Shown: piece after piece, positions 61,497-62,224 of the stretch
Numbering within the stretch: the stretch's first letter is position 1
How the letters are laid out: each line of letters starts with the position of its first letter
Source of the DNA: Escherichia coli
GTDB lineage: Bacteria; Pseudomonadota; Gammaproteobacteria; Enterobacterales; Enterobacteriaceae
Length of the DNA: 64,000 nucleotides
Strand: one strand, 5' to 3'
Assembly: GCF_003334815.1 (NCBI RefSeq)
Contig: NZ_QOWO01000001.1
Position numbers and translations under genes: made by a program
Notes under the pieces: model-generated
Told to the model about the DNA's origin: nothing
The model's database searches: none
What the model saw: only the letters and a program-made list of their open reading frames with translations

Positions 61497-61913
61497 TTAA
61501 TCAATAAACAAGGCGGGAGAAATGCCGAATCGCGTTGCCAATTTTTTAGCGTGTTCCAGCGTTAATTTCCTCTTCCCGCTCAAAACGCGTGACACCATAG
61601 ATTTACTGCCAATTTCCGGCAGATCGGAAAGGGTTAAACCATATTGATCCATAAGGGTACGAATCACGGCTATACCGCCAGGCATGGCTTGAGCCATGGC
61701 ATTAAATTCCGCAAATTCGGGCGCTGATTCTTCCCACGCGGTTATTTTGGCACACACCAGATCCAGCAAGGGGTTTTCAGGATCGTTGAGCAGCAGATGA
61801 TCTACCAGTTCCAGCGCCTGGGTGTATTGTTCCTCGTTCTGAATACCCGCCAGAAAAGGTGCCACAGCAGTTAGCTTTTCTCCTGCTTGCAAGATGTCGG
61901 CAATCGCAATCAT
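61497..61913 (-). CDS. higA: Antitoxin HigA (YgjM)
   Basis: 138-aa ORF with C-terminal HTH, downstream of the toxin. Confidence 0.92.
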   Translation of the reverse strand: MIAIADILQAGEKLTAVAPFLAGIQNEEQYTQALELVDHLLLNDPENPLLDLVCAKITAWEESAPEFAEFNAMAQAMPGGIAVIRTLMDQYGLTLSDLPEIGSKSMVSRVLSGKRKLTLEHAKKLATRFGISPALFID

Positions 61914-62224
61914 TTTTTCCCCTTAGTACGATGAACAGCGGTAAAGAAATCGTATTCTTTATGCGTCATAACTTCACGTATGTAGCACTTTTGCGATTCA
62001 AAAAAGACCATTGCTACAACACGTAATTCATTGCCCCCAACATTGAAAACATAATGCTTATCCAGATATTTGAAGTTATCCAGAGATGGGAATACTGCTT
62101 TTAATGACTCAGGTTTTTTGAAATATCCCTTAGCAATCGTGTTCCCCAGAGCCACCAACTCCGTTTTATGTTGCGGGTATTTTTCCGCAGCATCTTTCAA
62201 TGCTTTTTGAGTTATCAGGTGCAT
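61910..62224 (-). CDS. higB: mRNA interferase toxin HigB (YgjN)
   Basis: 104-aa ORF overlapping higA start by 4 bp. Confidence 0.92.
   Translation of the reverse strand: MHLITQKALKDAAEKYPQHKTELVALGNTIAKGYFKKPESLKAVFPSLDNFKYLDKHYVFNVGGNELRVVAMVFFESQKCYIREVMTHKEYDFFTAVHRTKGKK

Follow-up and report, generated by a model that had tools for sequence, protein, structure and literature searches.

Two overlapping genes of the minus strand occupy positions 61497 to 62224 of the window, by which is meant the whole stretch of 64,000 nucleotides of Escherichia coli DNA analysed here. The first gene of the operon, higB (ygjN; 61910-62224), encodes a 104-aa toxin of the RelE superfamily, and the second, higA (ygjM; 61497-61913), encodes a 138-aa protein acting as antitoxin and repressor; both assignments draw on the list of open reading frames (ORFs), on the RefSeq names and on the protein comparisons described below. 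Read directly from the minus strand, the TGA stop codon of higB (61912-61910) and the ATG start codon of higA (61913-61911) share an ATGA overlap (61910-61913), and an AAGGGG Shine-Dalgarno motif is found at 61919-61924, 5 nt upstream of the higA ATG. RefSeq gives the gene order fadH, higA, higB and rlmG and names the pair higB/higA. According to the ORF list and the annotation the operon has no third gene, the neighbour of higA being the convergent fadH, whose stop codon is 44 bp from that of higA. By megablast, a 1,121-bp region at this locus matches derivatives of K-12 (JM109, TOP10 and O16:H48 among them) at 100% identity, and the annotation shows no gene for a transposase, an integrase or a tRNA up to 2.5 kb beyond either end of the match. 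The locus is higB-higA (formerly ygjN-ygjM), a type II toxin-antitoxin operon on the chromosome of E. coli K-12 that has already been well studied. A previous sequence-only reading of the window had described a 104-aa toxin ORF ahead of a 138-aa helix-turn-helix (HTH) antitoxin ORF with an ATGA overlap, and had placed the pair between fadH and rlmG rather than on an obvious mobile element; its coordinates, lengths, gene order and overlap are all correct, as is the chromosomal site, which has no annotated mobile-element gene up to 2.5 kb away in either direction. The strand (minus) had been left unstated.

The proteins leave little doubt as to their identity. HigB is 100% identical over its full length to chain A of PDB 5IFG, the 'mRNA interferase HigB' (E 5.9e-68), and HigA is likewise 100% identical over its full length to chain B, the 'Antitoxin HigA' (E 1.2e-86), the same HigA sequence being present also in PDB 6IRP, 6JQ4, 6KML and 6KMQ. 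Since both translations match the chains of a solved structure in this way, the possibility that the two are chance ORFs is ruled out. In Pfam, HigB matches PF09907 HigB_toxin (4.4e-22, residues 20-92), a family listed as HigB/YgjN in PMC11980606, and HigA matches HTH_3 (PF01381; 2.5e-07) with its C-terminal residues 84-135. Neither protein matches an NCBIfam family at E<=0.001, and their RefSeq names must therefore stem from another rule. According to the literature as summarised in PMC7160566, the N-terminal domain of HigA serves dimerisation and toxin binding and its C-terminal domain is the HTH, a domain order opposite to that of Proteus vulgaris HigA. The earlier assignment to a HigBA module with toxin-first order is thus borne out by the two Pfam families and by the identity to the 5IFG chains. 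Indeed, the antitoxin gene follows the toxin gene on one strand and in one operon, in keeping with the definition of such modules in PMC2814082, the toxin is a member of the RelE/ParE superfamily (PF09907), and the antitoxin is an Xre-type HTH protein; of the remaining hallmark, an autoregulated promoter with palindromic operators, the palindromes can be read in the DNA, the repression by HigA being taken from the published work. I found no evidence contradicting the higBA identification.

Upstream of higB, a consensus scan finds a sigma-70-like promoter on the minus strand (62256-62283; 10/12 matches), with a -35 hexamer TTGCCA at 62283-62278, a 16-nt spacer and a TG-extended -10 hexamer TATCAT that ends at 62256. 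The -35 hexamer is overlapped by an operator-like perfect palindrome (62263-62289), an inverted repeat of 12+3+12 nt with arms 100% complementary, CATCCGTTGCCA-GAT-TGGCAACGGATG, the core of which, TTGCCA-N3-TGGCAA, lies at 62269-62283. A second, imperfect operator-like palindrome (62236-62254), recognised by direct and inverted repeats and by motif search, has the core TTGACA-AAT-TGGCAA at 62240-62254, 29 bp from the first, and sits between the -10 hexamer and the higB start codon. A motif search for the common core, TTGMCA-N3-TGGCAA, returns these two sites only in the 64-kb window, against 0.03 expected by chance. A single promoter upstream of higB, repressed by HigA, has been mapped experimentally (PMC2814082); the sigma-70-like site at 62256-62283 is probably that promoter, and the two palindromes probably correspond to the HigA operators, which Fig. 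1 of the same paper depicts as inverted repeats.

The operon is flanked on both sides by repetitive extragenic palindromic (REP) sequences, although in a different arrangement from that first proposed. A BIME-like REP pair (62406-62493), detected as inverted repeats, separates the higB promoter region from the 3' end of rlmG. It has the attributes by which REP/BIME elements are defined, namely an imperfect palindrome of about 35 nt, many intergenic copies and a frequent occurrence as inverted pairs; its matches to the REP-derived Rfam family naRNA4 are partial and sub-threshold. The sequence-only reading had noted a REP pair downstream of the module; REP elements are present as it held, but, the operon being on the minus strand, the pair is downstream in plus-strand coordinates only and therefore lies upstream of the higB promoter. 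Downstream of higA there is only one REP hairpin, a single short REP-derived inverted repeat, GCCGGATGC-AAC-GCATCCGGC, located at 61463-61493 between the convergent stop codons of fadH and higA. The REP consensus occurs also at 45203, 59069 and 59169 in the window. How common these elements are is apparent from megablast, by which a query with its REP flanks hits a median of 25 places per E. coli genome and a REP-free query hits 1. As a side observation, the spacer between ygjK and fadH (58998-59303) comprises three REP-pair units in tandem, repeated every 100 bp; two of them score above the gathering threshold of Rfam naRNA4 (RF02564; 72.8 and 66.9 vs 59.5 bits), a nucleoid-associated RNA derived from REP325.

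A 79-aa ORF of the minus strand (62166-62405) was considered as an additional gene and rejected: it is unannotated, its start codon abuts the REP, and a 325-bp deletion found in other strains (see below) shifts its frame. It has a hydrophobic N-terminal stretch and spans the edge of the REP pair, the higB promoter and, in another frame, the higB start, there being no space for a ribosome-binding site outside the REP. It is probably spurious.

The genetics of the locus were established by Christensen-Dalsgaard, Jorgensen and Gerdes in 2010, who renamed ygjNM as higBA (PMC2814082). Growth stops upon arabinose induction of higB (pBAD::higB), and colony formation is rescued by IPTG induction of higA (PMC2814082, Fig. 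2); HigB cuts the dksA mRNA when it is translated and leaves the untranslated dksA mRNA uncut, in a RelE-like pattern; and the induction of higBA by chloramphenicol requires Lon and, to a lesser degree, Clp (PMC2814082). The sequence-only reading had suggested an assay of toxicity and rescue, with absence of growth inhibition upon HigB overexpression as the outcome that would speak against it. Such an assay had already been published for exactly the K-12 higBA, with HigB overexpression being toxic and HigA rescuing (PMC2814082), and that adverse outcome has therefore been tested and did not occur. Altogether, the toxicity, the rescue, the translation-dependent cleavage, the autoregulation, the Lon dependence and the structure of the complex have all been published for precisely this sequence.

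Taken as a whole, the data are best explained, and in my judgement very nearly certainly so, by the K-12 higBA operon with an mRNA-cleaving HigB and a HigA that both neutralises the toxin and represses the operon. A single promoter upstream of higB would yield one transcript of both genes, on which the ATGA overlap may couple the translation of higA to that of higB. HigB, as a small RNase of the RelE superfamily, would cut mRNAs only during their translation, so as to stop protein synthesis and growth, and would be neutralised by the binding of the N-terminal domain of HigA. By way of its C-terminal HTH domains, a HigA dimer would in turn bind the two TTGMCA-N3-TGGCAA palindromes, at the -35 and in the region of the start site, and thereby repress the operon. 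Of this scheme, the assignment of promoter and operators to individual bases and the translational coupling are what I infer from the DNA itself.

The known systems closest to the locus fit the scheme to different degrees. The K-12 HigB-HigA of PDB 5IFG, 6KML, 6KMQ, 6IRP and 6JQ4 is the same locus and differs from it in nothing. The HigBA of Shigella flexneri (PDB 5YCL) consists of near-identical proteins (E 1.6e-64 and 7e-85) from another host lineage, crystallised as slightly shorter constructs; S. flexneri HigA combines N-terminal dimerisation with a C-terminal HTH, as does the HigA of the window. More distant is SehA-SehB of Salmonella Typhimurium (STM4031-STM4030), which shares with higBA the toxin-first order, the 4-bp overlap and the HTH antitoxin, yet shows only 41% (toxin) and 42% (antitoxin) identity and resides at a different chromosomal site, beside yiiD and yihZ. 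Four residues of HigB, R68, H88, Y91 and D92, are common to both toxins and invariant across the five toxins aligned. The toxin-first layout with an HTH antitoxin is kept in homologues of Salmonella and in plasmid pairs of Serratia, Klebsiella and Acinetobacter (37-41% identity), and the 4-bp overlap is annotated also in the Salmonella sehAB and in the plasmid homologues of Serratia and Klebsiella.

SehA raises the question of how HigB exerts its toxicity. A 2024 preprint claims that Salmonella SehA inhibits RNase III and does not cleave RNA; by analogy, E. coli HigB might be toxic mainly by binding and inhibiting RNase III, thus blocking rRNA processing, with no ribosomal mRNA cleavage of its own. 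The alignment lends this some plausibility, for the 41% identity between SehA and HigB extends without gaps up to position 99, and four of the eight residues required for SehA toxicity are kept in HigB (Y53, H88, Y91 and T95). The other four are changed (D61N, K93F, Y97V and Y98H), however, three of them falling in the very C-terminal helix that the preprint singles out, and the RelE-like cleavages appear in translated mRNA only upon induction of HigB (PMC2814082), whereas the SehA claim rests on a preprint not yet reviewed. Cleavage by E. coli HigB has been observed upon overexpression in vivo, and in the literature searched I found neither a ribosome-bound structure nor an in vitro assay for the PF09907 family. 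That HigB shares the RNase III-inhibiting activity claimed for SehA appears very improbable, and that such inhibition is its main mode of toxicity, in place of mRNA cleavage, extremely so. Were it true, calling the PF09907 family 'mRNA interferase' would be wrong, or would tell only part of the story.

Beyond these relatives, the name covers more than one family. The founding 'Hig' system, HigB-HigA of P. vulgaris Rts1, likewise has the toxin gene first, a ribosome-dependent RNase of the RelE superfamily and an HTH antitoxin, but its HigB belongs to another Pfam family (PF05015, as opposed to PF09907 here), and the Pfam scan of the present HigB reports PF09907 only, with no match to PF05015. 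A phmmer search of the PDB at E<=10 returned the E. coli and Shigella HigB and one chance match only; no similarity was found at this threshold to the HigB of P. vulgaris, V. cholerae or M. tuberculosis, from which it follows that the label 'HigB' is applied to sequence families that look unrelated. 'HigBA' denotes an architecture and a superfamily, not a single sequence family.

HigB-family toxins are also found on 1,056 plasmid records. The nearest genuine plasmid relatives, encoded by plasmids of about 35 kb in Erwinia pyrifoliae, share the Pfam family, the gene order and the overlap at 71% identity; most other matches are from Klebsiella (IncF plasmids), at about 37% identity. Such pairs are often adjacent to IS elements or plasmid maintenance genes, and their sequences are divergent from the chromosomal pair. 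The only listed record of the plasmid collection with a 100% HigB match, NZ_CP141089.1, is 4.9 Mb in size and is evidently a chromosome filed among plasmids, so that it provides no evidence of a plasmid-borne allele.

A further comparison concerns phage defence. PD-lambda-2 is a defence system that was experimentally selected from the E. coli pangenome (Vassallo et al. 2022; PMC9519451), and the PADLOC profiles of its two components match the proteins of the locus: PD-Lambda-2_A matches HigB over its full length (2.2e-15), as would be required of a HigB-like first protein, and PD-Lambda-2_B matches HigA (8e-15) at profile positions 7-118 of 402 only, that is, in its N-terminal third. PD-lambda-2 is therefore built from the HigBA toxin-antitoxin family. 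From this one might argue that the role of higBA is abortive-infection defence against phages, rather than a stress response. The resemblance stops at the shared family, however, for PD-lambda-2 needs a peptidase fusion and a third gene, both of which are absent here: the Pfam scan finds no peptidase domain in the 138-aa HigA, and the operon has no counterpart of the third gene, which in PD-lambda-2 is related to a P4 phage antitoxin and is required for defence. The roles are also reversed, it being the B protein that is toxic in PD-lambda-2 and the A protein that neutralises it (PMC9519451). On these grounds membership in PD-lambda-2 was rejected; moreover, no report of a phage phenotype for K-12 higBA was found in the literature searched, and I regard a defence role as improbable.

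The distribution of the module was surveyed in 5,426 complete E. coli genomes with a REP-free query of 804 bp (61497-62300). A full-length locus, taken as at least 80% query coverage, a measure that does not guarantee two intact ORFs in every genome, is present in 2,825 of them (52%); the locus is partial (less than 80% of the query) in 1,552 (about 29%) and the site is empty, with no match, in 1,049 (19%). Being chromosomally embedded, as the sequence-only reading had it, is hence not the same as being part of the core genome: about 48% of the complete genomes lack the module or carry it in truncated form.

The partial class is strikingly uniform. In 13 sampled cases the match ends at query position 491, apart from one odd case, and the alignment of three alleles (L002, L009 and L010) reveals a 325-bp deletion of window positions 61987-62311, so that one identical deletion is common to about 1,550 of the 5,426 genomes. 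It takes away codons 1-79 of higB, the promoter and both palindromes, so that 25 codons of higB remain beside a higA ORF that is still intact and upstream of which the promoter scan finds no sigma-70 consensus site. Given that the same end points occur on higA backgrounds differing at 11 codons, the deletion allele must be old or have spread by recombination. An orphan higA at the fadH-rlmG site was previously noted in CFT073 and NRG857c (PMC7232551). The substitutions of three orphan alleles (1 synonymous and 0 non-synonymous, 2 and 4, 8 and 3, respectively) are too few for a selection test; conceivably, though improbably, the promoterless gene is kept because it acts as a regulator on its own or protects against relatives of HigB encoded by plasmids. 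A rare fourth state was met in one strain, CP61_Sichuan (L006, 3001-3105), where only the last 104 bp of higA are left between fadH and rlmG, this larger deletion implying that independent deletions also erode the module. Where HigB is intact, by contrast, the differences among K-12, ZH063 (ST131-type) and an O157:H7 strain amount to 5 synonymous and 0 non-synonymous changes, and the toxin is thus under purifying selection.

The empty site points to the REP elements. In three empty-site alleles, representing two haplotypes, the flank next to fadH is followed by a single REP pair together with the spacer of the rlmG side, and then by the flank next to rlmG (L003 1546-1680, L004 3979-4113 and L016 715-835). 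Outside E. coli, a degenerate-codon search with the HigA peptide AKITAWEESAPEF among 100,044 species representatives retrieved E. whittamii and Escherichia sp. E1V33 only; the search being for an exact pattern, little can be concluded from its silence in other genomes, that of the E. coli representative among them. In both species the module is collinear with the window beside fadH (92.6% and 95.1% nucleotide identity, respectively), which is consistent with a long residence at the fadH-rlmG site. In E. whittamii a complete REP pair lies between fadH and higA, at the same place as the K-12 hairpin, in direct orientation relative to the pair at 62406-62493 and with 32 identical bases shared between the two; higBA of E. 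whittamii is thus bordered on either side by a full REP pair, both in direct orientation. The K-12 hairpin (61463-61493) looks like an internally collapsed remnant of this fadH-side pair. The empty site is what one would expect if the REP pairs on either side of the module had recombined with each other. The same signature would result if the module had inserted into a REP pair already present, loss and gain both fitting the data.

These population data bear on what the operon is for. One may hold that higBA is of no use to its host, being a self-maintaining accessory cassette under slow loss from E. coli. A full-length locus in just 52% of 5,426 genomes, the sharing of one and the same deletion of promoter and higB by about 29%, the empty site in 19% and the existence of the second, rarer deletion in CP61_Sichuan would all be expected under such a scenario; reviews also describe the decay of chromosomal toxin-antitoxin modules in E. 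coli, and relatives are common on plasmids (the 1,056 records mentioned, the closest being that of E. pyrifoliae). Still, an intact HigB varies across phylogroups by synonymous changes only, and a syntenic locus of 93-95% nucleotide identity in both E. whittamii and Escherichia sp. E1V33 indicates long retention. I consider a useless cassette a serious possibility, if one falling somewhat short of an even chance. It concerns the role of the operon and not its molecular mechanism, and is therefore compatible with the explanation preferred here, that of a toxin-antitoxin operon in which HigB cleaves mRNA and HigA neutralises and represses.

To conclude, higBA counts among the ten classic type II toxin-antitoxin modules of K-12, with its genetics dating from 2010 and crystal structures from 2016 onwards, and the locus was already known in detail; what the present analysis adds is only the assignment of promoter and operators at the level of single bases, the frequencies of the three states (52/29/19%) and the account of the empty site in terms of REP pairs. 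Along this line, recombination between the REP pairs that border the operon would be a simple way of arriving at the empty site, and higBA illustrates that the loss of a small accessory cassette is possible without the machinery of a mobile element.
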